NCBI GenBank assembly: GCA_020536535.1
Contig: JAHLWZ010000193.1
Span: 1-64,000 of the forward strand
DNA length: 64,000 nt
From: Pelomyxa schiedti
Taxonomy: Eukaryota; Protista; Evosea
Reading direction: 5' to 3'
The notes beneath the pieces were generated by a model. The model did not search any database. It saw only the letters and a list, made by a program, of their open reading frames with translations, and was not told the DNA's origin. Below, piece after piece: positions 2,486 through 55,700 of this stretch (its first letter is position 1; each line of letters starts with the position of its first letter). A program made the position numbers and the translations under genes.

Positions 2486-3980
2486 ATGTCGCTGTCGCCT
2501 CTTGAATCCACGTCCCCCCGCAACGAGGACCAAACACCCCAGCAACAGCAACAACCACCCTCCCAATCGCCATCGTCGTCACCGCCCCACCAACAGCAGC
2601 CACCACCATCGCTCCAGCCACAGCAGCTCCAACTCCAACCACAGCCAATGCCATCATATCACGGGGGCGGAGGCAGCCGCCACACATCGCCCACTCCGCC
2701 GTTCTTCTCACACACAGCCCCCGTGGTGCTGCTGCCCACGTGCCTCTCTTCCTCCGCGTCGTCGTCGTCGTCGATGGTATCCCCGGGGGCCTCGACGCCG
2801 TCCATGTCTGTGGTGCTGGCGCCGGTGTCGCCGTCGCTCTCGCCGTCGCTGATGTGCGTGAGCCCGCACCTGCCCTCCGTGGTGCAGTCGCCCCGCATAC
2901 CGTCGCCCCCGCCGTCGTCGCCCGCGCTGTCGCCCGCCCCGGGCTGCTTCATGATGCTGGGCGGGGGCACTGGGGGCTTGCTGGGCTCCTCCTCGTCGTC
3001 CTCGTCGGGGGCGTCGTCGCTGACGGCGTCGGGCGCGGGCATGGGTGCCTCTGGGGGCATGACATTCGATGGGAGTAGCTATGATGAAGAGTTGAGTGCC
3101 AGCATCCGCTTGTCACTTGAGAGAAGTAGTTCTGCTTCCCCTGAGCCTCAATCTCTGCATTTGAATAGGTTTCTTCTTCTTTCCCCCCACCCCCTTTTTT
3201 TTCTTCTCCTATCTTCTATCTTAAACTTCATGGGTACTGAAGCTTACCTGGTTTTTTTTGGTTTTGGGTTGTTGGAAATTCAGGAGTGGGGAGGATATCA
3301 GTGATATACCACCTACTATTTCTTGCATGGCGACAAAGTTTCCACCACTTGGGCATTCTGCACTCTCCATTGATAATAATGAAATTTTAATGGAAAAGCT
3401 ACAAGCTGTGGCTGCATCCCAACAACGGAAAAGACGTCAGCAAATCAAAATGGTAATTTATTTAAAATTATATATCACTCAACCTAACTCCTACACCCAA
3501 GGTTATGGTTGTTAGGCAAGATTTGAAAATGGTCACTCTTCCAATAAACCCTTTTTACTCCTCAATTATTTCTGCAGGGTGTTGGCAAAATTGCGGCACA
3601 GTGCTGCCATGCAGCACTTGGATTGTACAAAGAAGCCATGGCAACAGACAGAGGAAAAGAACTTGTAAACACTTGGGAGCATTATGGTTGCTGCAAAGTT
3701 GTTGTAAAAGCCAATTCTCAGTTTGAATTGTATGAGTACTGCCATTTTTTGCACTTGGATTTCACATTGCCGTTATAGGGAGACGTTGTTAGGTCAGGCT
3801 CATTCCCTGGACCTCTTTTGTCACCTAGTGGCTGATGCTGGAAGGACACAAGTTACCCCAGGCACTATCACTGTCATGAGCCTTATTGGTATTTCTAAAT
3901 ATCTCTTTTATTGGGACTGATCATTACACAGGGGAGAGTGAGGAAGTCGACAAAATCACAGGACACCTCAAACTTCTGTA
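2486..3980 (+). CDS. PTRH2: Peptidyl-tRNA hydrolase 2 (PTH2/PTRH2 family) with a ~225-aa Ser/Pro/Gln-rich N-terminal extension. Six-exon model: 2486..3168, 3284..3451, 3502..3531 (30-nt micro-exon), 3578..3720, 3779..3888, 3932..3980.
   Basis: The spliced translation reads …QQIKM|VMVVRQDLKM|GVGKIAAQCCHAALGLYKEA…GKELVNTWEHYGCCKVVVKANSQ|ETLLGQAHSLDLFCHLVADAGRTQVTPGTITVMSLIG|GESEEVDKITGHLKLL*. This closely parallels the human PTRH2 core (…[22 protein letters not shown]…KVVVKAPDEETL…[20 protein letters not shown]…VTGHLKLY), quoted from memory. All splice phases were checked by hand. Confidence 0.85.
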
Positions 3981-4097
3981 ATGTTTTTTCCCCCCTTGTT
4001 GTTATTATACCACCCATTGCCACTTCTACCAAAAAAAAAAAATTGTACTGTTGGAGATAGAACATCGCACAGCAAGAACTGTTGCAGTACATCAGAA

Positions 4098-7000
4098 ATG
4101 GAAGACAACGCAATACACTGTGACGAAAAGCCCTTTGAATCATCGGAATCGTTTGATTTCCGGCAATTCACAGAGCGGAAGAACAAAACAGGGAAACAAA
4201 TTCTCAAAACGTTAAACAGAAACAAAGAGATGTCCAGCAATCATAACCGGCACGGCACCAAGCACGACAAACATAAGCACAAACACGACCACGACCACGA
4301 CAACGACAACGACAACGATCACGAAGAAGATGCAGGGGAGAAGTCGTCGTCTCATGGGCACCACCGGCACCACAGATCCGGAGGCGGAAGTGGCCTCAAG
4401 GACGAAGGCAGCCACAGAGCCGACGACTACGTAGGAGGCGGCGGCGGCAGAGAAGAGGAGGCCGCCGGTGGTGGTGGTGCGCAGGAGAAAAGCTCCGAGC
4501 ATAGCGGAGAGGGGGCAGCGGCTAGATCGGCGTCGACGTCTCTGTCTTTGTCGGCCTCCATCTCGCCGTCGTTGGCAGCGGCTCTACCGCCTGTGCGGTC
4601 GCCGTCCCCTTCGGGCGTCTTGTTATCGGCGTCGTGCCCGCTGTCGGCGTCTCCGGCGGTGCCCCCGCCGAGCACTTCGCCTTTTCTTGGGCCTGTGAGT
4701 GGGTCTGGAAACCAACTTGGGGTAGGCTTTTGTCAATCTCTGGGAAAACTTAAAGCCTCGCTTCTCTTCTCCTCTTTTTTTCTAATTCTTTGATTCTCTT
4801 CTGACGAAAAACATAGCTCAAGAGCGATGATTCCATGGGAAATCCTTCAGGAGGTAGGACTCTGAGCCTTGTATTGGTATTTTGTAACAGTATTCTCCAT
4901 AGCTACCAGCAAGGAGCTTTTAATGAAGCGACTTATGGAGCAGCGGCAAAGGAAGTCAAACGCAACGGCTGAGGCAAAGCGGAAGCAAATTGAGGAAGAC
5001 CAAAAACAAAAGTTGCTTGCAGAAGAAGCAGAGAAAAAACGAAAGCAAGAGGAGGAAGAGCAGAGATTGGCTGAAGAGAAACGACAAGAGGAAGAGCGGC
5101 TGGCAGAGATCAAACGTAAAGAAGACCTAGCAAAGAAAGAAGCTGAAGAACGAGCAAATAGAATAGAATCCGAAAGGCAAGCAAAAGTTGCACAGATAAA
5201 AGTTCAAGAACAACCAGCATGGGGTCAACTTCTGAGGAAAAAAAGTACCGCCGGAGGATTGAATGAACTTTCTCCACCGACATCTTCACTCGCACCTCCA
5301 ATCACACTCACCCCTGTACCGACACCTACACTACCATCTCACACTCACTCACCGTCTCTTTCACAATCTCCAACTACAGTTCCGTCTCTGTTAGTTACAC
5401 CACCACATGACCTTCGGGCTGCAACTCCACCAGTCATCACAAGTAATACAGCCACTCATCCGTTGAATCGAGCTAAATCGGCACAAACTTTCAAGAAGTC
5501 ATTTGTACCCACAGACCAAAGTGGTGGTGAGGAGCTGGCAAAAAAACTTGCAAAGATGCGTGGTTCCACTTCAAGTTCAGATAGTCAGTCAAGCACACCT
5601 CTCACATGTGGCTCCTTGTCCAAGTCTACATTGGTAGATGTGAAAGACACAAAAGTGGAGGCAAACACTAACGCGTTGAAGCAGCAACAAGTAAGTGTGA
5701 CTGGATTTCCATTCAATGTGAAATTGAAATCCAAAAGTACATCTCTACTAAACAAGCTAGCTGAAGAACCTGCAGTACAACTTTGTCCACCCCTTCCCAG
5801 TAGCTCTGAAAATTCTAGTGGCACGGTTCAAGGAGCAAATACCGTACTCGACGCACCTGTACTTTTAATAACACCACCAGTAGTTGTAGTAACAGCACCA
5901 ATATCACCTTCCTTCTCCCAGGCGATCACAATGGAGATAACAAACACCATTCCGCCTCAAGCAACATCATCAGAGGATTCCAGCCAACATCCTTCCGATC
6001 TTGTGAAAACGGGGATTCCAGAGCTACCGGATTCACACGCCGAAGAAGTACCCCATAATGTTCCATGTCCGAACTCGGTGATCGACACTGCATCCGAACA
6101 CCCTAAGATAAAGCATAAAAAGAACAAAAGGGAAGAACTTGCTGAGACTGAGGTATGTCCGGTTGAGGAAGCTCAGATTACCACCACAGTGGAAGAAGTT
6201 GAACATCACCACCATAGAAAGAAATCTCAACCCGAAATGCAAGAACCCCTCAGACTCCAACAGGAAGAAGAAGAGCAAAGAAAGAAAGAGAGGAAACGGA
6301 GGCATGAAGAGAAACGGAAAAAGAAAGAGGAGAAATTACAGAAACAAAGTGAAAGAGCAACGGAAGAGACACCACCTATCAGAGAAGTAGAGACGGTCGA
6401 ACACCTCATGGGAGAAGAAAGACAACAGACCGAGCAATCAGATGGGAACCACGTAAGAGAAGAGCCTATCGGAAGAGAGCTTGACAGCAAGTGTGCTGTG
6501 CCAGAAGCAAACTCCGCTGATGAAAAACCTCAGCCACTTGAAAATGCCGAGGCAAAACTAGAACCAGAACCCGAACTCGAACCACAACCCCAATTCGATA
6601 CACAAACACAAGCGGGAGCGGAAGTTGAACCTGAAGATCAAGCTCAAGCCGAACCAGAAACTCAAATTCAAACTCACGCGGAAGCTGAAGATCAAGCTCG
6701 ACCTGAAGCGGAACCAAAACCAGAACCAGAAGTTACTGCGATGGCACAATTGGAAACGGAAGTGGAAGTAGTTTCAGAGAAGAAACAAATTGCTGAGTTA
6801 GCTCAGCCAGCTGAAGAAGCGCCAAGGCGGCTAGAAGAAGAGGAGAAGACCAGGGAAGATAAGAGTAAACAAATTGAAGACGAGGCTAGCCTTTTGGAAG
6901 TAGAAGCGGAAAATAGACAACTAACAGAACAAAAAGAAGAATTGAAATGTGTAGTTGACGAGGCCAAACTCCTTCGTGAAGAAGAGAATAAAAAACTTGA

Positions 7001-9945: not shown

Positions 9946-10080
9946 GATCCTTGCTGAATGTGCTGCAGAATGTGGTCAATACCTGTTATTTTTGGTTAAT
10001 TTTTGTTGGTTGTTGATATTGAGCACGGCAACAAACATTACATGCACGAACACACATTCTTCCTGCTTCTTGAATAGCCA

Positions 10081-11164
10081 TCACTGTTTTAGAGAGAGAT
10101 CATTAATGGTTGTGATTAAGATGGGTCGCACACTTTCTGTTTGTTCATCAAGTTCCTGTTTAACTTTTGTTGTATTCAAAGCTTCATTCTGCTCTGATAG
10201 CTTTGCAACCTCGTTTTTGAGCCGACTAATCTCATTTTCCTGTCTCTGCAGCCGGCCAACTGCCGAAAAACAGTCCCCACCGCCTCCAAGCCATTGAACC
10301 ACAATGGTTGGTTTGTCTCCAGGCACTATGAAAACTCCATCTTTCTGCAAAGTTCCAGTCTGGCTGGTTTTTAGCGTCCCCCTATAAGTCGTGAATGTTA
10401 CTATGCCTTGGCCAACACCATCGGCTGTGAAAGAGCCCATGAACATGTCTCCATTTGGCCACTTCTTGGTTCCATATGTTGGCGCTCCCATTTCCCAATC
10501 ACCAACAAACGAGGTGCCGTCGCGTGCCCAGGTTTTCGTCCCCGAGCCATGCTCCTGCCCATACGCCCAATCACCTTCGTACGTGGTGCCATCGCTCCAT
10601 ACCCTCACGCCCTTCCCGTGGAACATGTCGTTCTGCCACTCCCCAACATAGCATCCCCCTTCTCCGCTACCAAAGAGCATGCTCCCTGTGCCGGTTTTCA
10701 CGCCGGTCAAATTTCCCATGGAAGATGTCGCCCGTGTCCAGCGACCTCAAAGTGCCATACCCGTGCCGCTTGTCCCACTTCCACTCGCCCTCATACACCG
10801 TCTCTAGTGTGACATAGTCATCATTGGCGCCGCTCCTCACTTTCGCCATTTGCACACCCCACCCGTGCTTGTAATTTGCGCCGTCTCTATCGCTCTCCTT
10901 CCATTCGGCGTCAACCAGTTCGTCATGGGTCTCCCATGTGCCCTTGGCCCACGCGCCACCACGCCACAGGCCTGAGTAGGAGCCCTCACTGCTGTCTAAC
11001 ACACCCCACCCGTCCCTCTGGTTGTTGAAAAACTCGCCTTCGTACGTGGATCCGTCAGGGTAACACAGAGTCGAACGACCTTGCAACGTAATGTACTGAG
11101 GGCCCCTGTTGGTGGGCCTTCTCCCCCTGTACATTGTTTCGAAACAAAACAGTTCTTCGACCAA
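10081..11164 (-). CDS. MORN-repeat protein (≥8 MORN-like YxGxWxxGxxHGxG units) with a C-terminal coiled-coil. Reading frame breaks near 10700.
   Basis: ORFs 10667..11164 and 10081..10719 (minus) both encode MORN repeats (YEGEWKWDKRHGYGT… / YVGEWQNDMFHGKGVRVWSDGTTYEGDW…) but sit in frames offset by +1 and overlap at 10667-10719. The tail reads …RLQRQENEISRLKNEVAKLSEQNEAL. Confidence 0.75.
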
Positions 11165-17400: not shown

Positions 17401-18763
17401 TCTTTCCGTTCACCCTATATTGTTCACTTTGTAGGCATGGTGTCCTTTTACCATCATTTTCTTTGACATGATGGGTAGGGGCTTGTCACATACCTGGGAA
17501 ATTAGCTATTTTAACGGTTTTCATTCATGCTTAGCCTGTAACTAAGCAGAGATAGGAATTTATTGCAAATGGAAGTTTGCGATCCTGCTACCTCAAGAAT
17601 ACATTATCTCTCCCCTTTAAGGTAAAGTGCCTTTTAGATGTTGCCAGAGGTATCCATTACAACCAAGACATGCATTCCACTTATGTACCCCAGGAATGGA
17701 TTACCTTCATCGATCTGCAATTTTACACAGGCACTTTACCTTAAGGGGTTTTTTTCGATCTCCCTTATTTTACTTAGAGACCTGAAACCTGATAATGTAT
17801 TGATGTCCGCTGTAGATTTAACCTCTCCCGTGGCTTGTAAATTGGTTTGCCCTCAGGAGACGTGTACATCAATTTCATAACTGGCCAACAGATCGACTTT
17901 GGCACCACTCGAGATATTAACGTGTCACAAGCAACACAATTCTACACAAGAGGAGTCGGCACTCCCGTTTGTATGCTTTCGTATTCTATTATTACACTGG
18001 TTTACTTGTTTTGTTCAAGATATGGCCCCTGAAATTCTGGATAATGGGAAATACAGCCAAAGTGCTGATGTATTTAGGTAGCCAAAAAACCTCTGTTACC
18101 TGGTAACTGTACGTCACCCCAATTAGTTTTGCAGTTACATTTTGGTCACTTCTCACTGGATTGGATCCCTATGTGGAATCCCGGTTTTCCACAAGCTGGA
18201 AAATCGCGGATTTCATCATTAAAGGAAACGTAGGCCCACAATACTCTCCCATAACCTCACTCTGACACGATTTGCAGAGGCTGGCCATCCCTGCTGACGC
18301 CCCAGCTGATCTTTCTGCACTCCTCTCCAAGTGTTGGGCAGTGGAACCACACGAGAGGCCCAAGTTCTCAGCAATTGTTGTGCAATTGGAGACCAAGTGG
18401 GTGGACTTGATGCAAGACAAGCGGCTCAGGAAGCAAAATCCATTAACCCGCAAGAAAGTAGAACAACCACAGCTTGCCCCTGTTCCGGATACAGAACCTG
18501 CCCCTCTCCCAGAAGAGGGTGGGGTGGCCATGGAGAACCTGATTAAGAAGAATCCGAATGATGGGAATGACACACCTCAAAACAATCACCAAGATGGAAG
18601 AAGCACTCCTGATGTTGACCTTGGGAATCCCCCTGAACCTAAGAAGCCAGGGAAAAAACACACCCATCATCACCATCGGAGACACCACAGGCACAAGGTT
18701 GCTGATTCTGATTCCAGTTCTGGCTCTGCTGGCAATAGCAGTGATGACGATTATGATAAATAA
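11477..18763 (+). CDS. Receptor-like TKL Ser/Thr kinase, paralog A (≥20 exons). Domain order: signal peptide; large Cys-rich ectodomain with possible β-propeller-like repeats; TM helix (~16440-16520, ICVPVGGVTAIIIVVGSVTITALACRRFNK); MSP/PapD-like juxtamembrane module (~16650-17150); kinase domain (17200-18450); His-rich tail (HTHHHHRRHHRHK).
   Basis: Signal peptide MVLRFVGIVTVVWFCAAGPWTGARG. First intron has a gtatgt donor at about 11808 and a T18 tract. Kinase motifs were assembled across introns: IGEGSFGSVYKGEWRG | VAIKVLKN | GMDYLHRSAILHRDLKPDNVLM | IDFGTTRD | YMAPEIL | KCWAVEPHERPKF. The exon-by-exon architecture matches paralogs B and C. Confidence 0.8.
11813..11832 (+). repeat. Poly-T homopolymer (about 18-20 nt) in intron 1 of receptor kinase A.
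   Basis: Run of T at 11813-11832 directly after the gtatgt donor. An analogous T-run sits at the same intron position in paralog B (41375-41392). Confidence 0.9.
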
Positions 18764-26940: not shown

Positions 26941-27195
26941 AATTTCGGCGAACGATTTTAAAAACAAAATCTGTCTGTTAGAACTCTCTATCCAGCTATT
27001 CTATCCCGAAAGCAGAATAACCGGAGAACGATTGCCAAAGGGTTCTCTGGTGGTGGCCTTTTCTCTTTTTTTATTTCGCGGTTGGTTCGTTGGCAACAAT
27101 CCCCGGCGAGATCTCCTTGGTGTAGCTCCCGTCTGTTTGGAAAGTCAAAGAAAAAAAAACTAGCGAAAGGAAAGCTAGTAAAAGAACACAGTAAC

Positions 27196-39264: not shown

Positions 39265-39521
39265 TACTGCAGTACCCCAAGTCTGTGCATACCAAATTTG
39301 GGCTATTTTGTGGTGATGGTCTCTAAAGTAAGACCGCCACTTTGTGAAAGAAAATAGAATAGAAATAATTCAGTACTTTGTTTGGAAAGTGTTGTCTCTC
39401 TTATCAGCATCATCATGTCATTACAATGAGTTCCCGGATTCCCTTTATGTCAAGGTGGAAGATCTTCATATCACAGAAATCACTAAAAATCCAAAAACAA
39501 AAAGCAGGAAAGGACAAAACC

Positions 39522-40667
39522 ATGCACGCGGAGCCACCTTCGGAATACGACCTTCCGCCGTCCGCATCTCCAGCAGCGCCACTCGATTTCCGACAACTAA
39601 CTCCACTCGATAAGTGGTGGGAATATTACTTGCTCGACCCGACCACGAACACGCTGACTCCTAAGAAACGACAGGAGCCAGACTACGTCATGGAGGGTCT
39701 GTATTTGGGAGATCAAGAGAATGCGTACAACCACGAGGTTAGTTCCCGTTCTTTGTAAGTAAGGGGTCAATGGTTAGTGGGAGGTGAAGTTCTGACTCCG
39801 CTCCATGGTGTATTAGATCCTGGAGAAATACCGCATAACTCACGTGTTGTCTTTTACTATGGATGACAAAACACATCACGAGTCCCGCTTCCCGAAATAC
39901 ATCAAATGCGCTACTATAGCGTATGCACTCAATACATTCCAGGAATGTATTCAATTTCGGTAGTGTTGAAGATAAGCGAACAGCAAACATTGCACAATAC
40001 TTCCCAACGGCACTCGCATTTATTGATCAGGGCCGCGCGGCTGGAAGTGTCCTCGTACATTGTGTCTGGGGTATGAGCAGAAGTGCCGCTGTGGTCGTTG
40101 CCTACATTATGTTCAGGTATTCTCCCTTGTGCTGAGTTATAAATGAATGACAAGGTCTTCCACAGGCTTCGTATGAAATTTACTGATGCTTTATCACATG
40201 TTCGGAAAGCTCGCCCTATAGCAGCACCGAACGATGGATTCTTATCGCAGTTGGACGAGTTTGGAAGGCAACTTGCAACAGTGGAAATGAGCGTGCAGTT
40301 CAACACCGTGTGGGGGGAGATATTGCATGTTGTTGGGTCAACAGAAGAGCTGGGGAACTGGAGGCCCACGGAAGCCAACCGAATGACGTGGTTCCCCGGC
40401 AATGTGTGGAAAATTGACCTGCCATTGTATGGGAAGGCCTTTGAGTACAAGTACATTGTGGTGCGTGACGAAGACGGAGAGGATCCAGCAATGAGATGGG
40501 AGGTCTGTGGCAACAGACTCTATGATGGCTCAAGGCGGTTCGTCAGGGACAGGTGGGACTTCAACCCCATCACCCTCGCTGGTATCAGTGGACCCTCCAA
40601 TTTCTTACTTCATCATCCAACTCAGCCGACTACAGGCTCCCCAAGTAATAATGGCTTGAGGACATAA
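39522..40667 (+). CDS. Dual-specificity protein phosphatase (classic HCxxGxxRS DUSP catalytic loop) fused to a C-terminal CBM20 starch/glucan-binding module. A laforin/SEX4-like glucan phosphatase architecture in DSP→CBM order; 5 exons.
   Basis: DUSP motifs EPDYVMEGLYLGDQENAYNHE | ILEKYRITHVLS… | VLVHCVWGMSRSAAVVVAYIMFR. CBM20 exon VQFNTVWGEILHVVGSTEELGNWRPTEANRMTWFPGNVWKIDLPLYGKAFEYKYIVVRDEDGEDPAMRWEVCGNRLY (conserved aromatic and GxW positions of CBM20). Confidence 0.8.
40301..40560 (+). other. CBM20 carbohydrate-binding module within the DSP gene.
   Basis: LGNW…W…FEYKY…W motif pattern typical of starch-binding domain family 20. Confidence 0.7.
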
Positions 40668-44000: not shown

Positions 44001-45025
44001 GTATTCATCTGTATTCAACAACCCTTACACTCGCAGGTGATCTGAAATGTTCAAATGTTCTAGTCTGCTCGCTGTCACTTGACGCGGACGTTAATTGCAA
44101 ACTCACCGGTATGGTTGCGGTTGGAAAGTATACTACAACATTCACGTAAACTTCAGATTTTGACACTGCCCGCAATGTGGACAATCCAAGTTAGAATCTT
44201 GTCAAACACCTGTGTTCCTAACTTCTTTGCAGATCTTGTTATGATGTACACAACCAAGCTGGGCACCGGTATCTTTATGGTAAGCATGACCAACTACACA
44301 GAAGTTTAACCTTCTCCAAGGCCCCTGAGCTGCTAGCGCCATGTACTGGCTACAACAACAAAGTAGACACATACAGTTACTCCCTTTGCTTGTGGGAAAT
44401 GTGGACGCGCCAAGAGCCATGGGCAGATGTTACACCCGAATGGGCTGTTCGCAAAATGGTCAAATCAGGGCAGAGGCCTCCACTGGACAAAATGGACCCC
44501 CCAGCCCCCCCCTCGATCCTCGATCTTATACAGAAGTGCTGGCACCAAGACCTCCACGCAAGGCCAGCGTTCCCCGATATAGTAGAGATTCTAGAAGACA
44601 TCAAGGCCACTTACAAGGACCGCCTTAACGTAGAAGAAAGCGATTCAAAGAGCGAGGGCCATCACAAGAAGCATCACAGGCATCACCACCACAAGGGTAA
44701 GAAAGGGAAGAAAAGCCAAAGCAGAAGTCGCAGCCGCAGCAGGAGCGCAAGCGCCTCGCCAGCCAGTGCCAGTGCCAGTGCCAGTGAAAGTGAGAGCAAG
44801 AGCAAGAGCAAGAGCGGCACCGGAGCCCACAAAAAGCACTCCAGCAAGAAGCACAAGAAGCACGAGAAGAAGAGCGCCAAGTCCAAGTCCAGCCACAGTG
44901 ATAGCCACAAGAAAGCCAAAGGCAAGAAGCACAACAAAGGGCACAGCTCCAAATCCCACAAGCACGGTTCCTCCTCCCCCTCGCCCTCCCATTCAAGCCA
45001 CAGCAGAGGATCCTCATCCTCTTGA
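41038..45025 (+). CDS. Receptor-like TKL Ser/Thr kinase, paralog B. Domain order: signal peptide; Cys-rich EGF-like segment (…CDPYHGVCICTPPWTGATCEF); CUB-like module; TM helix (LALIFFAAAVVGLGVAICLAVGARIIVV, ~42920-43010); MSP/PapD-like module; kinase; His/Ser/Lys-rich tail.
   Basis: ATG at 41038; signal peptide MRTRTGGGVLVVVLTVIACVAVVPCGAWG; intron 1 has a gtatgt donor and a poly-T tract at 41375-41392. The 353-aa exon 42510..43571 holds the CUB-like stretch (CYLRKNICRWLISPTGKYDIIKMNFTSFG…), the TM helix and the MSP-like stretch (…SIRPGVGKIPPHKRMEVDVECSLL…). Kinase motifs: GGFG|KVYRGKYRG…AALKML | DLKCSNVLV | DFDTARN | CLWEMWTRQEPWADV…CWHQDLHARPAF. Stop TGA at 45023-45025. Confidence 0.8.
44700..44990 (+). 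repeat. Coding low-complexity tail of kinase B ([44 protein letters not shown]…) including a hexanucleotide microsatellite (gccagt)n at 44764-44790.
   Basis: Direct reading of the sequence: (gccagt)4-5, then (gagagcaag)n. The antisense ORFs 44645..45324 are artefacts of this repeat. Confidence 0.7.
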
Positions 45026-45268
45026 CTGTAAATAACACAAAAACTTTCCTGTTGAAATCCCTTGATTCTTTTCCTTCCCCGAATACCCATGTATGGTACC
45101 AAAAACTCAAAAATCTGGAAATCAACCAAATCGAACTGCACTAACACAGCCCGTTTACAAGCATCAAACGTGTGGAAAAGGAATACCGTCCGACGCTTTT
45201 TACCAAAAAAGAACAGAGAAAAATAGACAAAGGAAAAAAAAAAAAAAACAAAACAAGAAGGAGCAACC

Positions 45269-48200
45269 ATGCCCCGGAGCGCCTCGTATGTCGTTGGCGT
45301 GTCAACTTTTGTCGCTGCGGCCACCGTCCTCCTCCTCGTACAATTAATCTCGGGCGCCGTGGGTACGACGCCTTACTGCATCAACGTCGTCGGCTACTTC
45401 CCGTACAACTTCTCGTACCCCGACTGGTACCACGTCATCCCGGTTCCGATCGTGTCGTGCGACGTCGTCAGCACCGCGTTCATCGACGAAGGATACCTGT
45501 CGCCGGCGTACACGCCGCAGATCGACGGCGTGTACCGTACGCTGAAGCTCGCGTGGTGGGTGTCGCTAAAGACCACGCCCTCGCCCTCTTTGCCGAGGGA
45601 CGACAGAGGAGTGTTCTACTACGACGGCTACGAGACTGGCGTGCACAACGGCGTGCGGGTTCGGTTACCCGCGGAGCAGGATGACTTTGCTAATCTGGGT
45701 GGGGGTGCTGATGTGGATTATGGGACTGCGGGTGACTCCTATGGTGCTTCTGTGAACGAGCCGAGGTACTACCCTTACTCGATGGAGTATGGCGCTGGAC
45801 GGCCCAGCGTGTTCACGACCGTGGACAATGGCGAGGATGGGGATGGATATGAGCATGTGGAGGTGCGGGATATTACTACTCGCGCTGGATCCTCTGATTC
45901 AGAGTCGTCGTCGTTGTCGTCTTCCGACTCCGACTCCGACTCTGACTCTAGCTCCGAATCTGATTCCGAGTCGGAGTCTAGCTCGTCATCTTCGGAAGAA
46001 GTATTTCCCTGTTTCTTCCCGCCATAAGCACTAATCGTAGTAAAGGTAGTGCAAATTCCATTATACAAGAGGGCTAACGGCGTGCACTTTGCTGCTGTTT
46101 GGACTGCTTTTTCAGTTGCAAAACCTATTTAGTATGCCATTTCCCACTAAAAGAAAATTCTCCCTTAAGTGAGCCCCTAGCATGTTCTGCACACAACAAA
46201 AGTCCGTTTCAAGTAACAGTATTCTAACCTGTGTTCAGCACCTCAATGACGGTCACTGGACTAAGCGCATCGGGCCAGGCTCCTACTTCAGCTAGCTTCT
46301 TCAATATCACTATTTCGTGCCAGGAACCAGCTGTTGTAGCAGCATCTATGTCTCTTATGCTCAGTGACTCTTCATCTATAGTCACCTTTGCCCCTCGATG
46401 GATGTGCTACACACCTGGTTGTCCTTCTTGGTGTTCATTACATGGGGTCTGTGACACCCTACGCGGAACTTGTGTATGCAACGAAGGATGGGAGGGCACT
46501 GATTGTGCGATAAAAGTTGTGACAAACTGGGTCTTTTGCCCCCAAGACCCGATCATCGTCTCTTATGAAATACCGTGAGTTCTTGCACCCTTCCAAAGTG
46601 ACTTGAATAACTCAACTCCATCAGGTACACCACAAGTGGAGTGACTGGGACAGGCAACTCAATGTTTATGACAATCGTCACGCCTTTAACCCCTATAGCA
46701 TATGATTATCGCTATTTCATGACCTGGGCTACTGTTGTTCCGTACCTTGCAACGGAGGGATATAACAAAGATTACTCCGGCACTCATCTGACACCAACGT
46801 ACTTGGCTCCAGGGTCGTATTATATGAGGGTTTCAAATGACCTGACTGATACTGTTGTACTACTGAAGCAGATGACAGTTAAAAGTTGGGCAGCCTGCAA
46901 TATTTCTGCAACTTGCGGCAACGGCACCAACAACACTTGCAACAGCGAAACCGGTAAAGGCACCTGTGTAAGTGGTTCCTGTCAATGTGCTTCTGGGCGG
47001 TTTTGGTATGACTGTTCCAGGGGCTGCTCTGGCCTTGCTTTATCGTCCTCAAAATCCGGAGAAGTGAGGTCCGACTACCCAACAAGCGGTAACATTGATG
47101 ATATGCGTGATTCTAGTGTTATGTCAACCTGCTATTGGCTTATATCCCCACCCGATAGCTATGACGAAATTGTACTCAATTTCACATTTGTGGGACTGGA
47201 CTACATTGGGGTACTTTACGTATACAAATCTGATGAAAATGCTTCTGTTGGTGAACTTGTTATGACTATTAACAGACTGGCTCCAGCGCCTAAGGGTATC
47301 AAAACTCGGCACGTCCTCGTTGTATACGAAAAACTTGCCACTATGAGTACACATGGATTTGCTCTTTCTTACTATACACATAACATACCCCTTTCTGGAA
47401 TCGCAATCGGTTTCACGGTATTCTGCAGTATCCTTGGGGGGTTGATACTGGCAACGGCAGCTGGAATTGCCATTTACTTCCTTGTAAAACGACAAAAACG
47501 GTTGAAATTGCAAGCTATGAACGAGCCAGCTGTTGAAGAAGATATGATGACACCCGAAGATCTTGCTCATGATAGAGAGAAATTTGAAGGGCAGAAGGAA
47601 GAATTCGTGGCTGCTGGCTTCCAAGTGGACAAGACACGATTAATGTTCTCTTTGAAGCAAACCGATCCCTTCCCAATAAGAGAACAGCGGGAGGATCTTC
47701 TGAGTATATCTAATAACACGGGAAGAGATGTACAATACTGTATTTTCGTTCCAAAACAAGAATTGCTGATGAAGTTTGCCGTGAAACCGGGCAAAGGAAA
47801 AATTCCAGCTGGCGCAACCATGGTGGTTGAGATTAAATTGGAACTATTCTACACAACCCATTTTGACTACCCCATCCGAATTGAAATTACTTCCTCCAAC
47901 GGCACAGTACAATGCATGCACATAGACGTCAAATTTGAAGGCGCACACTCTGTGTGGATTGATCCAGAAGATATTCGCTTAGACCAAGAAATAATTGCAT
48001 CTGGAAGCTTTGGGTATTTAGCCATGCTCCCATGTTTTAAATACTGGGTAGCTCACCTGAATTAGGAGTGTTCACCGGGGAGCCTACAAAGCGCAGATGT
48101 TAGCTATTAAAGTACTAAAAGATCAAGAAGGGTTAAGTGATAAAGATATCGAAGAGTTTGAATCTGAATGCAAGCTCTTGAATCAAATTCACCATCCAAA

Positions 48201-49837
48201 GATTGCCCAGTTTATTGGAGCTTCCCACATTCCAGGTGAGGCACTCCCATGACATACACATGGGTGTTTAATCTTAAAAAGGTAAACTATGCATATGCAC
48301 TGAACTTGTGCCAAGTGGCAATTTGGCAGCTTTTCTAAGATCTCCAGCGGAGATACCCTTTATTCTAGTGCTTAAATGGGTTCAGAACGCTGCTGAGGCG
48401 TTGAAATTCTTACACCAAAACAAAATTCTTTATGGTTCGTCCTGCAACTTTTGTTGACTGAAGTTTTAAGTATCACAAGGTGACCTGAAATGCGCAAATT
48501 TGCTTCTTGTCTCCACAGCAATAGATGCTTCAGTGAACTGTAAACTAACTGGTTGAACTCCTCCTTCCTGGAAAAAAACTAATCTTTTCTAAAGATTTTG
48601 GCACTGCTCGCACTGTTGAGGATATTGGTGCGTAACTGCCACTTCTCCCTCTGCCCCCTTAACGTTGTCCAGATCAACCCAAACAGTACATCAGTCCACA
48701 AGGAACACAGGCTTACTTGGTTATCTACTTTTTCGCAGCAAGTTCTTCTGTTTAACTATAATCTTTGTAGGCTCCCGAAATTCATAGAAATTCCAAAGAA
48801 GCAGAAAAAACTCAGTTGAACTATGCCGTAATCTTTTCTTTCCTTTTTCTTTCCTCTCAAAGCCCCCTTCACTCCAAAAGATCGATGTTTACAGCTTTGG
48901 CATTTGCATGTGGGAGATGTGGGCTCGCCAAGAACCTTGGAACACGTTGCTTTTATGGGACATCGGACCCGCAGTTGTTGCCGGGCAGAGGCCGCACATA
49001 TCGTCGCGGTGCCCCGAGATGTACGCGGAACTAATGAAGCGATGCTGGGCTGATACTCCCAACGATCGCCCACACTTCGACACGATAAACAAGGAGTTGG
49101 AGTTCTGGATCAAGCCCGCGATAGAGTACGTGAGGATGAACGTGCAGAAGCACAAGAAGGGCGTCCTGACGGTCAACACGTTTGCTCCCACGAAAACCAG
49201 CGGCGCCAAGACCAAGACCAGCGACGCGTTCTCAATCAACAGCAGCGGCTCTGGGTTCGCCAGCAGCATATACAACTTTGCCAACAGCCCCACTCCCACT
49301 GGGACCCCCAGCTCCAACTCGGCGGCCGACGCCAAGGCCGGCGGCGCCAAGACCAGCGGCAGCAACGCCATGACGAACTCCCCGGCGTCGAGCAGGACGT
49401 CCAGGGACAAGACAGGCCGGGCAAAGACATCGAGGACGAACAGGGGCAAGACAGGCGGGGGAAGGGACGATGACGGAATTGAGATGGAGCCGCTGGGCAG
49501 CAAGAAGACAGCGTCGGCTGCGGACGAGGCCACGTACGAGTCGCTGTCTGAGGAGCAGAAGGAGGAGGTACGGAAGCTGGCCGCGATCGTGTCTACCAGC
49601 AAGAAGCACGGGACCCAGGCACTGTCGAACACGTCTGGGGGCTCTGGGGTCAGCAACGCCACCACAACGTCTGGCGACACAAACAAGTTCAAGCAGCTCG
49701 ACGCCACGCTCAACATCCGCGGCCGCACGGTGATCAGCGGCACCACCGCAACATCGACAACAACGACACCCACACCACCAGTGTCAAGTCTGGCCACAGC
49801 CAAAGTAGTCCCCACTGGCAAGAAGGACAACGTGTAG
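45269..49837 (+). CDS. Receptor-like TKL Ser/Thr kinase, paralog C, immediately downstream of B. Same ectodomain–TM–MSP-like–kinase layout; exon 1 carries an acidic (SD/SE)n stretch; C-terminal Ser/Thr/Gly-rich tail.
   Basis: ATG at 45269; signal peptide MPRSASYVVGVSTFVAAATVLLLVQLISG. Exon 2 (46231..46578) aligns with the paralog B EGF-like exon (CSLHGVCDTLRGTCVCNEGWEGTDC). The 474-aa exon 46641..48065 carries the CUB-like stretch, TM helix (IAIGFTVFCSILGGLILATAAGIAIYFLV) and MSP-like stretch (KFAVKPGKGKIPAGATMVVEIKL). Kinase exons: SGSFG|…YKAQMLAIKVLK… | DLKCANLLL | DFGTARTVEDI | APEIH | ICMWEMWARQEPW…CWADTPNDRPHF. Confidence 0.8.
45895..45996 (+). repeat. Acidic (Ser-Asp / Ser-Glu)n coding repeat ([37 protein letters not shown]) at the end of kinase C exon 1.
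   Basis: tccgactccgactccgactctgactct… periodicity. A gtattt donor directly follows at ~45996. Confidence 0.6.
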
Positions 49838-49984
49838 AAAACATGACACACCACGCTGCACTCGTACGTTACTTAACTGTAACACCAACAATGTACACAC
49901 CTCTTAAAACAGCTCCTTATCTTTTCTCGGTAGCAGCTCCATCAAAAAAAAAAAAGAAGGAAAAAATAGGCGACCGAAGTTTGG

Positions 49985-52224
49985 ATGTCCCGTAGCCCCT
50001 CACCGTTGCCGCTTCGGCCGACGCCGAAGCACTTCGGGGGAGCAGTGATTCCCCCGCCGCTTCCAACACCCACTCCCCCAGCGACCTCGCCCAGTCCCTC
50101 GCCGCCCTTGCCCCACGTCTTCCCGGTGGCGAGGAGCTCGCTGTACAGTGTTGTCCCGGTCGTGCACCTCACCTCGCCCCCTACTCCCCCCCACCACCAT
50201 CACCAACAGGAAACAACCCCGCCGCCGCCGCCGCTGCAGCAGCAACTGCCCAGGTACGTACCCGCCACCGGAGGGGGCTACTACCCAGCGAGCCTGGCGC
50301 CCCCGCCCATGCCCTCCCCGGCCCTGTTCGCCACGCCCCCGCCTACGCCCTTCTCGTCGCCGCCCGTGTCCCAGCCCACGGGGGACTCGTCGCCCTCGCC
50401 TTCACCTTCGGCGTCGCCCTTCGAGTCTCCGTCGCCCTCGCCGCTGCTCCCCGGTGCCGGCGTCGGGGTGCCATCGTTGTTTTCCGACACAGCGTCGCCC
50501 CCGCCCCGCCTCTCCCGCGAGGAGTCGCCGCCCGAGCTGGCCGATTCTGGCTCGGCCTTGTCGCCCTTGCAGGATGACGCCATCGGCGAAACAAAGGTGC
50601 AACCGAATTATGATGGAGGGCATGGTGGAACAACCAATTGTGAGTCCAGTCCCAGAACGAATGTTGCTTGTGCACCTCCTCAAGTCCCAGTTGTGAGGAA
50701 TACTTCACCAGAAGGTTGAAGTTTTCGTGCCTGGTTTGGCACCAGTATTAAACGTTGTGTGCTCACCATTAGTTTTTCAGATGCCACTACTCTGTGGGCA
50801 AGGGAACTCATTTCATCCCAACAGCAACTTTATACACTCGCCAACGAGATTGGCAGAGGTGCCTATGGCATTGTTTTGTGTGCAATCCAAACTTTCCGTT
50901 GTAGAGTGCTTAACAATTCGTGCATTTCAGTTCCGGGGTGTGTCTAAGGACTGGAGCAGCAGTTGCCATTAAGCTTATAGAAGGATGCTGTGAGAATGAA
51001 AACGAATCTCGGAGATATATTCGAGAAATTAAAATCATGAAGTATTTTGCACAATCCAGTCACGTAAGACCTGCTTTATCAAGCCAATAATAATGTGTTC
51101 TCAGGTCCTTGGTCTGATTGACATTTTTCCTCTGAGTGAAGGAGGACAAAAATTTGCTCATATGTAGTTTGACTTTTTCCTTTGATTTTTTCAAATTCTG
51201 TGTACAGAGGAATCGTATCAGAGCTCATGGACTGTGACCTGCGAGCATTAATTTATGAAAGGGGGCCTATCTCGCCTGAGCAATGTTGTATTTTAATGTA
51301 TGGGATTCTGTGCGGGGCCCACGAGATTCATTCAGCTTGTATTGTACACAGAGATTTGAGGTTGGCTTCCCTTTTCTTTTGTGAAATTGATATTCACTTT
51401 TCAGACCAAAAAACATTCTGGTTAAAGGCAATCATGTGAAAATTTGTGATTTTGGACTTTCCCGGGGTCAGTCACATCGCATGAGTTTGCTGGCAAACCT
51501 TTCTCATCAGTGGTACACTGCTCCAGAAGGTTAGTTTACTTTCCTAAACGTTCTAAGACATTACAAAATAAATCTCCACAAGGTCTTTTCAATAACAACT
51601 GGTTATATTCCCATAGTATGCACAGTCCTTAATACTTGCGCAGTTATACAACCGCTGTTGATGTGTGGAGCTTGGGTTGCATATTTGCAGAAATGCTAAC
51701 TCAACAGATTTTATTTAAGGGAGAATCTCGAGGCAACTCCCCTCACTTTTTCTATTCGCGGCTCATCTCTTATAGTGGTGCGGCAGGCTGAGAAGATTTT
51801 TCAAATTCTGGGGACACCTAGTGAGGAGATAATAAATAAAATATGTGGCAAGCATTCTCGGGTAAGTCTGAAACACTGATGTTCTTATCCAGTTAACCAG
51901 TTTACAGTGGCTCCCACAGCTTCAAGTTCTTCCTTTTTACCCGGCTACTCCACTGGAGAGTTGCTTTCCAAATGTTCCTTCAGAAGGTATAATCACTCTT
52001 CTTGCAGAATAAACTAACTTGCCATATGGTACTGGATAGCCATCAATCTTCTCCGAATGATGCTTGCTATCAATCCAGCTGAGAGAATAACTACAACAGT
52101 AGCCCTAGCTCATCCATACTTTTCCAAACTTGTGAAACTTCCCAGTGATGAAAAACCTCTTGTGTGTACAGTATCAACCACAACCCAAATCAAACTAAAT
52201 TCTCCAGAAACCAGCACCTGTTGA
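49985..52224 (+). CDS. CMGC-group MAPK-like Ser/Thr kinase with a ~240-aa Pro-rich N-terminal extension. ≥8 exons; the first exon 49985..50714 splices in frame to 50781.
   Basis: Kinase motifs across exons: IGRGAYGIV | AVAIKLIEG…REIKIMKYF | [15 protein letters not shown]…[11 protein letters not shown]|[21 protein letters not shown]…WYTAPE | [19 protein letters not shown] | [13 protein letters not shown] | ALAHPYF. The phase-1 donor GAAG|gt at 50714 and acceptor cag|AT at 50781 give …[14 protein letters not shown]. Confidence 0.75.
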
Positions 52225-52782
52225 TGTTCCTGGCGTGGCCACTTCCCCCCAAATTCTAAAAGGTAAATACTCCTGTATGGCTCTTGGTTTGAGCCCAAGA
52301 TATTTTTTAATCATAGAACTTCACAAAGTAACTTTTTCCCTTACCAGAGATGCTGTATCAGGAGTGTATAACAACGGCAGCAGTAAGTACAGCGGCATTC
52401 AGAAGTATGACGTCAGCATCCTGTTGGTCATCACTGAGCCTCAGCCACTCCTGACACCACAGGGTAGATAAGGTTGTGTTAGTAATTTTTGTCTTTTTGT
52501 AGAAAACACCGACACACCTATGTAATCCAAATTTAAAACATTTTCATTGGAAAAGAACAGACAGGATTTTCCTGTCGGGAAGCGACCGCATCTAAACAAA
52601 AAATCTATTTTTTTTTCCCTTTTGATTTTTCGTGCAACAACAGCATTATTAGAAAGAAACAAAACAAAACCACACGAGCTCAATAACTCTCGGGTGCTAC
52701 GCGCGCCAACCACCACACAACCGGCACCTACTGTATATTAATACGTCGCCACCCACCCATACTACAAAAATAAACCCCAAGC

Positions 52783-55700
52783 ATGCACACGCTTTTCAAA
52801 AAAAAGAGTAGCAGCAGCCAAAACAGCCCGACGTCAGCAGCGAATGGTGCTAGTTCCTCGTCGTCGCACCACTCGATGTCCTCGTCGGCCAACTCCATCA
52901 ACATCGCCAGCGTGTCGGCGTCCACCTCGTCGTCGTCGTCAGGCACGCTCTCCGCCTCGGCCCTTAACGCCACTTCGTCCCCGGCACCCCCCACTTCCCC
53001 AACCATTGTCTCGTCCTCGGGCATCACTATCCCAAAGCTCCAGCTCCCCGCCTCTTCGCCCTCAGCCCCAATCCCAATCTCCTCCTCCTCGTCCTCCAGC
53101 AACCCTGCGACTTCCTCGTCGATCTCGACGCCGTCGCAGGCCGCGCACCCCAGCAAGTTCCTCAAGCTGCCCCACTCGCACTCCAACAGCAACAGCGGCA
53201 GCACCAGTGTGCCGGCGGCCACGTCGCAGCCCAACTCCCCGACGCTGCCCCCCGCGGCCTCCTCGTCGTCGTCGCCGGGCGGCGGTGGCAGCAACACACC
53301 CCAGTCCGGATCGCCGTCGCGCCCGCGCAAGGGCCACCACCAGGGCAAGACATACTCGATGGCCGGGGCCGACGGCGTGCCGCAGCAGGTCACGATGCCC
53401 AACACGGCGCGCGGCTACCACCGGGGGGAGGAGGAGGCCTGGGGGAGCTACGACCAGCAGTCGCAGTCGCCGTCGCCGTCGCCGAGCCCCCCACTGGATA
53501 TGCCCAGCCCCCGGCGGGGCCCGTCCAGCACCACGCCGCCTACGTCGAAGAGCCCCAGGGACCGGGAGCGAGACAGGGCGAGGAGCCCGCACAGGCACAA
53601 GGGGCCTCCTGCGCCGACCGAGCCGATGGTGGTTCTCACACACTCCACGGGGTGCCTGCCAATGTCCGACAAGGAGGGCAGGATGTCCATGTCGTCTTCT
53701 GGCAGTTCGAATGTGGACGCTGGGATGCTGTCGGCTAGCATGGGCACTGGTGTCATGGAGAGGCCAATGAAGCACAACTCACACCATCACCATCACCGCC
53801 ACCACACAACAACCAGGCACGGCAGTGCCAATGTTGGGGAAGACAGCGGCAGTGGCAACAGCACCCACCCGCGGCGGCGCTCTTCTTCTTCTGTTGTTCC
53901 TCCGTGTCTGTCGCCGTCCATGTTTGTTGGTGCGGATAGACCTGGTCAAAACCAGTCTCTACTCCCGCCTTCCTTAGCTCTCGCTTCAGCTTCGTCACAT
54001 GACAGACACAGTGGATCCAAGAGTATGAGATCAAAAACTGGAAGCAGCAGAAGAGTGAGTGTAGGACGGGAAATGGGAGAAGATACTGACTCTGGAGCTG
54101 ATATTGAGATTGGTGACCCTGAACAAACCATTTCCTTCCTGGACAAACTTGGTGGGAATTAGCTTCATTTATTTACTCTTTGTTCACACCCAGTAGGAGA
54201 AGGTAACTTTGGTTCCGTTTGGAAGGCACAACATGTCTCCGGAAAGATACTTGCTGTCAAGAAGGTATTGCACCACCATCCAATCACAGTAACCAGTCCA
54301 CAGGTTCCTCGAGATGAAGCTCTTGAAATTACCAAGGAAGTCGATTTCATGAAAGACCTCAGAAAGAGTTCTTACCTTGTAAGGTGAGATTACTTTTTCT
54401 CCATCTTCTTCTAGACGTAAAAACAGGTACTATGCGAGCTGTAATGTGAAGACAGAACTGTGGATTGTGATGGGTATAACATATATTTTTCACTCGTTCT
54501 TGTGGTTAATGCCTCATTCTAGAGTATTGTGCTGCTGGCAGCTTACGAGGAATGATGAAAATTTGTGGGGTACCCTTCCTTTTTTTGGTTTTTTAATTCA
54601 ACGTCACTTAGCGAAACCTGTCTGAAAACGAGATTGCTGTTGCTACATGTCATATGCTGAGGGGTTTACATTGTCTACATGCCTCAAATAAGCTACACAG
54701 AGATATAAAGGTAGTTACTTTTGTATCTATTTTACATTTTTGATTCGTGAGAGGCTGCCAACATTTTGGTTGATGGGAATGGGATTGCAAAACTTGCTGA
54801 TTTTGGTGTGAGTGGTAATGGCAAACAACATCACACCATGATTGGAACACCCTTCTGGATGGCCCCTGAGGTTTCCCCATGCTCCCTGTAGTTGCCTTAA
54901 CACGTCAAAGATTATTCAAGACCTTGGATATGATGAACATGCTGACATTTGGTCTCTGGGAATTACATGCATTGAATTGGCTGAGGTAACGAATCGTGGG
55001 TGTAAAAAATGTTCCAACCTGTGCCAAGGGAGAGCCCCCGCACTTTGACGTTAATCCTATGAGAGCAATGCTACAAATACCCAAATGGGATCCGCCAACA
55101 CTGACACACCCAGATAAGTGGTCCCCAGCGTTCAATAACTTCCTTGCTCGATGCCTCGTGAAAAATCCTCACCAAAGGTCGTACCATTTACTCCCCTCTT
55201 TGTACTCACCTTTCAATGAAGACCGCTAAGTGCTGATTTACTGATGGACCCTTTTGTGAAACCTGCAGAAAATTCATCTCTTCTTGGTGAATATTTACTT
55301 CCTCAGTAATCTATTTTGACTCCAATCAGAACTAGTACAACTACAAGAACAAATGCGCCCATTGCAGGCACCGGAGCCAACAACGCCTCAACCCTCAAAG
55401 GACCCCGGTAATCTTGCCTCTTCACATGGGTCAAACTCGTCGTCATCATCCATTCTTGGAAACAAAGGCGGCAGCGTCATGTCTACTCCAGTAGGCGACA
55501 GTGATGCCGACCTCGACATGAGGGGGCTGAGTGGAATTTGGAGCAAGTTTGTGCTAGATAACCCAGCACTGGTGGGAGGAGCAGATGCGGAAGGTGAGGG
55601 TGATGATGAGTTGGAGGTAGGTGACGAAGCGGAAGATGGAGGCACAACAACAGAGGGTCAGAATTCTGACCTACAGACACCACGCCACTCCAGCTGCCTC

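Follow-up and report, generated by a model that had tools for sequence, protein, structure and literature searches.

Long low-complexity first exons of a PTH2 gene and two kinase genes in Pelomyxa schiedti

Three genes in a 64,000-nt stretch of Pelomyxa schiedti nuclear DNA (hereafter the window) open with long, GC-rich, repetitive first exons: PTH2, a MAPK-like kinase gene (K1) and a STE20-like kinase gene (K2). Are these exons genuine coding parts of the genes, and is their in-frame splicing onto catalytic cores unusual? A first-pass annotation had presented the three as unrelated enzymes, which was overstated, since two are protein kinases encoded by adjacent genes. The in-frame first exons are ordinary gene anatomy for amoebozoan genomes, low-complexity terminal extensions being already known, as in Dictyostelium, and in-frame splicing at these junctions is a trait of any correct gene model. 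Two of the three gene models (PTH2 and K2) are in GenBank, K2 without its first 204 codons. The P. schiedti genome, modelled with Augustus, PASA and EVM, has 7.4 introns per gene (PMC8887013), so that the tracts are conspicuous for their unusual length without an intron. A total of 27 introns was modelled in the three genes, the longest being PTH2 intron 1. A prokaryotic or viral origin was ruled out by GT-AG introns of 39–115 nt and 100% matches to P. schiedti proteins.

With a probability of about 75%, we consider these to be ordinary coding first exons, in which long, fast-evolving, disordered N-termini are joined by short GT-AG introns to intron-dense conserved catalytic parts; the first exons would then be included constitutively. 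The low-complexity sequence, which appears to lie in GC3-rich blocks marking most gene ends, probably grew via in-frame expansion within terminal exons, and this would explain the missing introns. Dictyostelium proteins are homopolymer-rich at non-homologous positions, and dictyostelid PkaC has a low-complexity amino-terminal domain ahead of its catalytic core (PMC3188802). Like these amoebozoan proteins, the P. schiedti proteins carry long, poorly conserved repeats before catalytic cores, with periods that are multiples of three. Unlike in Dictyostelia, the tracts are GC-rich (Ser, Pro and Ala via TCG/CCG/GCC) rather than AT-rich Asn/Gln, and they use mixed codons instead of single-codon runs.

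The PTH2 gene and its relatives

The PTH2 features, all on the + strand, were as follows:
2486–3168, +: exon 1, 227 codons plus 2 nt, ATG at 2486, inside a model identical to GenBank P0001
3080–3121, +: UIM-like motif YDEELSASIRLSLE, aa 199–212, in the AT-richer 3' end of exon 1
3169–3283, +: intron 1, GT-AG, 115 nt
3284–3452, 3502–3531, 3578–3729, 3779–3888 and 3932–3981, +: exons 2–6, GC3 0.33–0.53

The six-exon model (397 aa) matched the NCBI entry 'Peptidyl-tRNA hydrolase [Pelomyxa schiedti]' (P0001) with 100% identity from end to end (100% coverage). The coordinates, junction and phase first reported for this gene were right: the donor AG/gt after 3168 and the acceptor cag/G at 3284 join in phase 2 to give ...LN-R-SGEDISD. 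Exon 1 was Ser/Pro/Gln-rich (S 26%, P 16%), with a GC content of 0.66 and a GC3 of 0.75. The Pfam PTH2 domain (PF01981) occupied aa 282–397 and covered profile positions 1–115 in full (130.8 bits; cutoff 23), and the 19 invariant columns of a nine-sequence alignment were present, including K283, G297, K298, D364, G366, T368 and Q369. As in other PTH2s, a C-terminal 115-aa domain with all invariant residues thus follows a non-catalytic N-terminal region.

This N-terminal region was 281 aa long, compared with approximately 110–176 aa in five relatives scanned with Pfam, two of which contained UBA domains. All eight PTH2 relatives found were 226–586 aa in length, and the earlier description of such orthologues as normally compact was too strong. 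Human PTRH2 and yeast Pth2 have N-terminal membrane anchors. In the P. schiedti N-terminal region, no UBA or other Pfam domain was detected; the UIM-like motif matched Pfam UIM_2 with 12.6 bits (E 0.18), below the cutoff of 21. The relative P0006 combined a UIM (19.5 bits) with a significant UBA and the PTH2 domain. Similar to the UBA/UIM-bearing protist PTH2s P0003 and P0006, P. schiedti PTH2 may carry a ubiquitin-binding motif upstream of its domain, although its match is sub-threshold.

The adjacent kinase genes K1 and K2

The K1 features were as follows:
49985–50714, +: exon 1 of a CMGC, MAPK-like gene, 243 codons plus 1 nt, ATG at 49985
50715–50780, +: intron 1, GT-AG, 66 nt, phase 1
50781–52454, +: exons 2–13, with a 19-nt micro-exon (51583–51601) and a GC-AG intron (51733–51775)

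K1 exon 1 was Pro-rich (P 26%, 27 S/T-P motifs; GC 0.68, GC3 0.73) and was joined in frame to exon 2 in phase 1 (donor GAAG/gt after 50714, acceptor cag/AT at 50781). The whole model comprised 13 exons, with a Pkinase domain at aa 261–551. Over aa 236–593 it aligned to the P. schiedti paralogue P0011 with 81% identity and no gaps, beginning 8 aa ahead of the exon 1/2 junction and crossing it, which confirms all K1 junctions. The coordinates and phase originally given were right. Within exon 2, no Met precedes the Gly (ATP-binding) loop; an upstream coding exon is therefore required.

The CMGC-type domain of K1 is closest to MAPKs, but the label 'MAPK' fails on a defining feature. The best matches were MAPKs of ciliates (Tetrahymena, Paramecium), fungi and plants, including MAPK7 (33–40% identity), and the APE motif is shared. 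In contrast to MAP kinases, the defining TxY motif was not present in the activation loop when the translation was inspected, with L-A-N at what we take, from general knowledge of MAPK loops, to be the equivalent positions, and the catalytic loop reads HRDLRPKN rather than HRDLKPxN. No annotated protein was retrieved for K1 (49985–52454); the full-length search missed even the 81%-identical P0011, and Pro-rich words may have saturated its candidates. The exact K1 and K2 model sequences were absent from the protein collection.

The K2 features were as follows:
52783–53394, +: exon 1, upstream part, 204 Ser-rich codons, GC3 0.85, outside the GenBank model
53395–54151, +: exon 1, annotated part, Met205 onward, conserved with paralogue P0011 and predicted disordered
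54191–54196, +: CAGTAG tandem (NAGNAG) acceptor of intron 1, two in-frame AGs 3 nt apart
54197–56069, +: exons 2–11, STE20-type kinase domain, disordered linker and C-terminal 62-residue helix

K2 has ten introns of 39–49 nt, intron 1 included. The reading frame 52783–54151 was open throughout and the donor first proposed was right. The proposed acceptor (CAG/, exon start 54194) is in frame, but the junction reads KL-V-GEGNFG there, not 'KLG-V-GEGNFG' as had been written. The GenBank K2 protein P0010 reads FLDKLGEGNFG, so that its model uses the same donor with the next AG, 3 nt downstream (tag/GA, exon start 54197), and the paralogue sequence ERLGEGSFG agrees with this distal acceptor. GenBank and homology thus favour TAG/ as the probable acceptor. 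Our model and P0010 coincide from Met205 onward save for a single residue, at the tandem acceptor. As the start codon of P0010 is Met205 (nt 53395), 204 of the approximately 455 exon-1 codons first described have no annotation support.

The K2 Pkinase match scored 186 bits, and the top matches outside Pelomyxa were MAP4K3, STK10, STK25 and TAO2 (37–43% identity). Like STE20-group GCK kinases (MST/Hippo, MAP4K, STK10/25, TAO), K2 combines the GTPFWMAPE signature with a C-terminal coiled-coil helix, which AF2 models in P0010 as a single long helix (aa 675–736); a C-terminal region of 150 aa is additionally predicted to be disordered. K2 thus has an STE20-type kinase domain, but the name 'Hippo/MST' is not supported. 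Unlike in MST/Hippo, this domain is central rather than N-terminal (aa 453–695 of 951; aa 249–491 in the GenBank model), and a SARAH domain was found neither in Pfam (no Mst1_SARAH match at E ≤ 10) nor in a PDB sequence search with the last 103 aa, which returned generic coiled coils only.

The paralogous K1/K2 pair of P. schiedti is annotated as a single fused protein of 1314 aa (P0011), in which the K1 paralogue has only about 45 aa before the conserved core. Two genes are fused in P0011, which shows that the annotation pipeline can run on across GC-rich DNA that is non-coding. A true K1–K2 fusion protein in the window was excluded by the K1 stop codon and the 329-nt AT-rich spacer that follows it. 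The main value of these models lies in the curation of the P. schiedti annotation, in which K1 has no retrievable protein and the K2 start codon may be placed 612 nt too far downstream.

Coding character and disorder of the first exons

Open reading was assessed with 20000 mononucleotide shuffles, counting those in which the claimed frame was free of stops. This occurred in 159 shuffles for PTH2 exon 1 (0.8%), 252 for K1 exon 1 (1.3%), 437 for the first 204 codons of K2 alone and none for the whole of K2 exon 1 (<0.005%). For PTH2 and K1 exon 1, the claimed frame was the sole fully open one of six. In a codon model for which anchored GC-rich coding segments served as training data, the claimed frames of all three first exons were the best on the + strand; for PTH2 and K1, the codon-aligned antisense frame matched the score of the sense frame, and stops are the only argument against it. 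GC3 of the three exons was 0.73–0.85. Ser was encoded by six mixed codons, unlike a DNA microsatellite, and a microsatellite origin at the DNA level was rejected, as only short tandem arrays were found, with periods that are multiples of 3.

Ser and Pro together made up 36–42% of the first exons. The AF2 pLDDT was below 55 for PTH2 aa 1–250, and almost throughout P0010 aa 1–234 it was below 50. With their biased composition and no predicted fold, the PTH2 and K2 first exons are predicted to encode disordered low-complexity regions, in line with the original description of all three first exons as coding and low-complexity. In K2, aa 205–457 were conserved with P0011 (49% identity over aa 261–470; z = 8.3 for aa 205–262), including RRxS and His-rich motifs, whereas aa 1–204 had no similarity to the paralogue linker beyond composition (z = 0.09 against shuffles). 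The first-exon regions probably serve as regulatory or docking tails, with the S/T-P sites of K1, the conserved RRxS and His-rich motifs of K2 and the UIM-like motif of PTH2 as candidate features. The models also show that long disordered tails of this kind, with candidate regulatory motifs, are common on catalytic domains in the P. schiedti genome; such tails can mislead when orthologues are compared by length or when homology searches rely on words.

Part of the low-complexity reading frames could instead be an open, GC-rich 5' UTR, with translation starting at K2 Met205, at K1 Met109 or in another exon, and at PTH2 Met243 in exon 2; we regard this as unlikely. The GenBank start at Met205 speaks for it, as do the similarity to P0011, which begins almost exactly there, and the Met residues (MMVM) that P0011 has roughly 13 aa before the equivalent position. 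It is also consistent with the open +1 and −1 frames in 52783–53394, with the zero matches that K1 exon 1, as sole query, gave among 1.84 × 10^9 representative proteins, and with the read-through artefact P0011 in the same annotation. However, the GenBank model includes PTH2 exon 1, and 52783–53394 had the strongest codon periodicity of all, winning the codon model by 40 nats. In addition, no other start separates the ATG at 52783 from an in-frame stop 12 nt ahead of it; this ATG bears an A at −3 and coincides with the shift from A/T-rich spacer to GC-rich block, and a ribosome scanning any transcript initiated within the 329-nt spacer would reach it first. The first-pass annotation had also raised alternative first exons, which with internal promoters would yield long and compact isoforms. 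Met243 of PTH2 would give a protein of ordinary size (approximately 155 aa), and the tandem acceptor of K2 could give two forms differing by one Val. Yet no evidence of such exons was found: the introns 1 of 115, 66 and 45 nt (PTH2, K1 and K2) are too short to house a further promoter and exon, K1 exon 2 offers no Met before the ATP-binding loop, and the 147–329-nt spacers upstream of K1 and K2 hold no second candidate first exon. Such isoforms are accordingly very improbable, and ordinary coding first exons remain the preferred reading.

GC3-rich blocks at gene ends

Most gene ends in the window carry GC3-rich, intron-free blocks. Next to short spacers, the 5' ends of seven genes and two 3' tails had a GC3 of 0.7–0.97, compared with 0.3–0.45 in gene interiors. 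Within PTH2, K1 and K2, GC3 dropped from 0.62–0.97 to 0.28–0.45, with a similar profile in five other ORFs, and the switch sits within exon 1, 120–250 nt ahead of the first intron. The TKL kinases at 44390–45022 and 48908–49834 have GC3-rich C-terminal tails that share an exon with the end of the kinase; the low-complexity tail of a third (18272–18760) is not GC3-rich. The pattern is thus not specific to N-termini or catalytic cores. Since the window has many terminal blocks that are GC-rich and of low complexity, the systematic habit suggested earlier is plausible genome-wide, but the rule of N-terminal extensions spliced to cores fails on the C-terminal tails of TKL kinases and K2.

The GC-richness may reflect a regional process with a GC bias around gene boundaries, for instance biased gene conversion at recombination sites near promoters or terminators, rather than a property of low complexity; we hold this as a tentative possibility, which adds to the reading as ordinary coding first exons and does not replace it. 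Besides the GC3 contrast and the position of the switch, high GC3 is also seen in MORN and signal-peptide exons, which are not repetitive, but not in the low-complexity ORFs 60106–61101 and 58979–59941. Against it, the pattern comes from a single 64-kb window in which genes other than PTH2, K1 and K2 were read as ORFs, slippage of GC-rich codons could yield the same picture in repetitive parts, and for Pelomyxa neither recombination nor even sex is documented here. The intragenic switch is the one aspect that could open a broader question. It is a long shot that sharply bounded, GC3-rich (0.7–0.97), intron-free coding blocks flank nearly every short P. schiedti spacer, beside GC3-poor (0.3–0.45) gene interiors dense in introns, with the low-complexity first exons as their most conspicuous part, pointing to a localised GC-biased boundary process; if so, that process (e.g., biased gene conversion at promoter-proximal recombination sites) would hint indirectly at meiotic recombination in an amoeba in which, to our knowledge, sex is not known.

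No mention of a GC3 gradient of this kind was found in the two Archamoebae genome papers searched. Similar gradients occur in grasses and human first exons (PMC4684703, PMC4316631, PMC7181179), with which the P. schiedti genes share a steep fall from the first exon downstream and GC-rich intron-poor parts. Unlike in those gradients, the switch in P. schiedti, an amoebozoan, lies inside exon 1 and not at the intron, and some 3' terminal exons are GC3-rich.

Gene models of the peptidyl-tRNA hydrolase and the two kinases

The first-pass annotation had described three genes, for a peptidyl-tRNA hydrolase (PTH2), a MAPK-like kinase (K1) and an adjacent Hippo/MST kinase (K2), as beginning with long low-complexity exons spliced in frame onto catalytic cores. 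The observation as a whole was real; small corrections applied to one acceptor, one junction peptide and two family labels, and one start codon was uncertain. Every correct gene model has its first exon spliced in frame, and such splicing is no phenomenon in its own right; two of the three models were already public.

For PTH2, the coordinates, phase and junction peptide were correct as first given. The model built from that first junction had six exons:

2486–3168, +, exon 1
3284–3452, +, exon 2
3502–3531, +, exon 3, a 30-nt micro-exon
3578–3729, +, exon 4
3779–3888, +, exon 5
3932–3981, +, exon 6

The product was 100% identical, over the full 397 aa, to NCBI 'Peptidyl-tRNA hydrolase [Pelomyxa schiedti]' (P0001). 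The PTH2 domain occupied aa 282–397 (Pfam, 130.8 bits), and aa 1–250 had a pLDDT of <55 (AlphaFold2). Exon 1 was rich in Ser (26%) and Pro (16%); the claimed frame was the only one of six fully open and lacked stops in only 159 of 20,000 shuffles. The closest relative, Mastigamoeba balamuthi m51a1_g3322 (P0002; identifier style as in PMC8136499), matched the domain only, 30% of the query. About 70 aa of P0002 were internally duplicated, with GAFALGYLFGRSRRAG...KTAAQCCHATLGAAQRAMK occurring twice, probably as an assembly or annotation artefact.

The description of PTH2 orthologues as normally compact was overstated, since all eight relatives retrieved were 226–586 aa long and the five scanned with Pfam carried about 110–176 aa N-terminal to the domain, including UBA domains in two. 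The AT-richer 3' end of PTH2 exon 1 encoded a UIM-like motif, YDEELSASIRLSLE (3080–3121), which scored 12.6 bits against the Pfam UIM profile, below the cutoff of 21, and may serve as a lead, not a demonstration. The protist relative P0006 combined a near-threshold UIM (DDDALAQAIALSLE) with UBA and PTH2 domains. UBA/UIM modules in other protist PTH2 proteins hint at a recurring link between PTH2 and ubiquitin.

With the proposed junction 50714/50781, K1 became a 13-exon model of 617 aa. Residues 236–593 aligned without gaps, at 81% identity, to the first third of P0011, a P. schiedti paralogue, which confirmed every downstream junction, including those of two features:

51583–51601, +, K1 micro-exon of 19 nt (gapless paralogue alignment)
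51733–51775, +, K1 GC-AG intron (gapless paralogue alignment)

The alignment began only 8 residues ahead of the exon 1/2 junction (VVRNTSPED versus LARVSPKED), so homology supported this junction itself weakly. Exon 2 had no Met ahead of the glycine loop, and an upstream coding exon is thus needed. In exon 1 (Pro 26%, 27 S/T-P motifs, GC3 0.73) the claimed frame was the only open one, lacking stops in 252 of 20,000 shuffles. A search of 1.84 billion representative proteins gave no homologue of this exon at E ≤ 0.001, and neither exact look-up nor full-length search brought up a K1 protein annotated in P. schiedti; in the paralogue annotation only about 45 aa preceded the core. The MAPK label was too specific: K1 lacked a TxY motif and its catalytic loop read HRDLRPKN. 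As judged from sequence, it is not a canonical MAPK but a divergent member of the CMGC kinases.

The K2 model of 11 exons matched GenBank P0010, 'serine/threonine-protein kinase 3', except at two points. P0010 started at Met205 (nt 53395), and it read FLDKLGEGNFG, which places the acceptor at the second AG of a tandem site and the exon start at 54197:

54191–54196, +, CAGTAG tandem (NAGNAG) acceptor of K2 intron 1; use of one AG or the other adds or omits a single Val directly ahead of the glycine-rich loop

The acceptor chosen first (54194, 3 nt off) was also in frame and added the Val ahead of the GxGxxG loop; the paralogue read ERLGEGSFG, supporting the GenBank choice. It was at the K2 junction that the peptide had been mis-written.

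Residues 261–470 of K2 shared 49% identity with the paralogue, with two conserved motifs (20 and 11 protein letters), and residues 205–262 matched it at z = 8.3 above shuffles; the annotated part of exon 1 is thus not featureless. Over the first 204 codons, likeness to the paralogue was of composition only (z = 0.09), and two other frames were open as well. Codon periodicity peaked in these 204 codons (GC3 0.85), which also won a codon model by 40 nats. The upstream start was the first ATG past an in-frame stop 12 nt upstream, had A at −3 and coincided exactly with the switch to GC-rich composition. Because of the codon periodicity, the codon model, the ATG context and the composition switch, we lean, with some reserve, towards translation from this upstream start rather than from Met205.

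The annotated part of exon 1 and P0010 aa 520–671 were predicted to be disordered, the latter followed by a predicted 62-residue C-terminal helix. No SARAH domain was found in K2 by Pfam or a PDB sequence search, and its kinase domain was central, so that the Hippo/MST label was not supported; K2 is classed here, on its predicted protein, as a STE20-group kinase.

Introns of K1 and K2 were uniform (39–53 nt) with two exceptions, both in K1 (66 and 85 nt). Alternative first exons had been offered as an explanation of the extensions; no sign of them was seen, and introns 1 of PTH2, K1 and K2 (115, 66 and 45 nt) leave no room for them.

The K1–K2 pair (49985–56069) was duplicated as a unit on a different, 86-kb contig of P. 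schiedti, where it was annotated as the single fused 1314-aa protein P0011. The linker resembled translated non-coding DNA, and P0011 is probably a chimeric gene model. Its K2-like half had HRH in place of HRD and DWE in place of DFG and is therefore probably a pseudokinase; it nonetheless retained the N-terminal motifs common to K2.

GC-rich blocks at gene ends

Sixteen GC-rich blocks made up 15% of the window, and at least seven genes had such a block at the 5' end:

ending near 2032, −, one gene
from 2486, +, PTH2
starting near 4232, further gene
45269, +, EGF-like receptor-kinase gene
from 49985, +, K1
from 52783, +, K2
56241, +, MORN gene

In two TKL kinases (44390–45022 and 48908–49834) such blocks covered the C-terminal tail, which in each case shared an exon with the end of the kinase domain. 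The proposal of systematic N-terminal extensions was partly right: extensions of this kind are predicted to be disordered and occur commonly in the genome, but they are confined neither to N-termini nor to splicing. A third TKL kinase (18272–18760) had a low-complexity tail that was not GC3-rich (0.47). Low complexity without GC richness was also found in an ORF at 60106–61101 (−) and in MQPG repeats around 59450–59730, and the MORN exon was GC3-rich yet not repetitive. Repeats in the first exons were short, with periods in multiples of three.

In PTH2, K1 and K2, GC3 was 0.62–0.97 over the first 200–360 codons and 0.28–0.45 thereafter. The drop lay inside exon 1, 120–250 nt before the first intron, and is thus not an exon-boundary effect. 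GC3-rich intron-free coding blocks were located at:

1605–3194
4232–4788
44646–45956
49107–50704
52770–54015
55560–56907

Blocks of this type (GC3 0.7–0.97) stood on either side of short A/T-rich intergenic spacers (about 150–450 nt). In gene interiors, which were dense in introns, GC3 was 0.3–0.45. This sharp intragenic switch at gene ends is the only thread with wider potential.

There is ample documentation, in Amoebozoa, of low-complexity regions ahead of catalytic cores: coding homopolymers abound in the genomes of Dictyostelium, at non-homologous positions, and Dictyostelium PkaC has an amino-terminal domain of low complexity (PMC3188802). Low-complexity regions of tetrapods are enriched at termini and linked to high GC (PMC11285758), and grasses and humans have GC-rich first exons and 5'–3' GC3 gradients (PMC4684703, PMC4316631, PMC7181179).

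Genomic setting

P. schiedti is an anaerobic archamoeba. Its single-cell genome spans 52.4 Mb (46.5% GC) and encodes 19,876 proteins, with an intron density of 7.4 per gene; the gene models came from Augustus, PASA and EVM with the use of single-cell transcriptomes, and RNA-seq reads are listed under BioProject PRJNA672820. The term low complexity has 0 occurrences in the genome paper (PMC8887013). The window was eukaryotic, with numerous GT-AG introns of about 40–50 nt, and held at least six protein-kinase genes within 64 kb:

8.2–9.3 kb, −, protein kinase
17.0–18.8 kb, +, protein kinase (TKL)
41.0–45.0 kb, +, protein kinase
45.3–49.8 kb, +, protein kinase
49985–56069, +, K1 and K2

Two of the kinase genes, paralogues in tandem, encode EGF-like transmembrane TKL kinases whose C-terminal tails are rich in His/Lys/Ser or in Ser/Thr. 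Other features were:

10081–11164, −, MORN-repeat gene
22506–23030, +, PARP catalytic domain
27082–38000, +, very large USP/UCH ubiquitin hydrolase gene, first exon Gln-rich
39378–40667, +, ORF with C-terminal CBM20 starch-binding domain (53 bits)
56241–57191, +, MORN-repeat gene

Pfam on the ORF upstream of CBM20 gave no confirmation of a phosphatase part; by eye, the sequence before CBM20 resembled a dual-specificity phosphatase, and the combination would suggest a candidate laforin-like glucan phosphatase.
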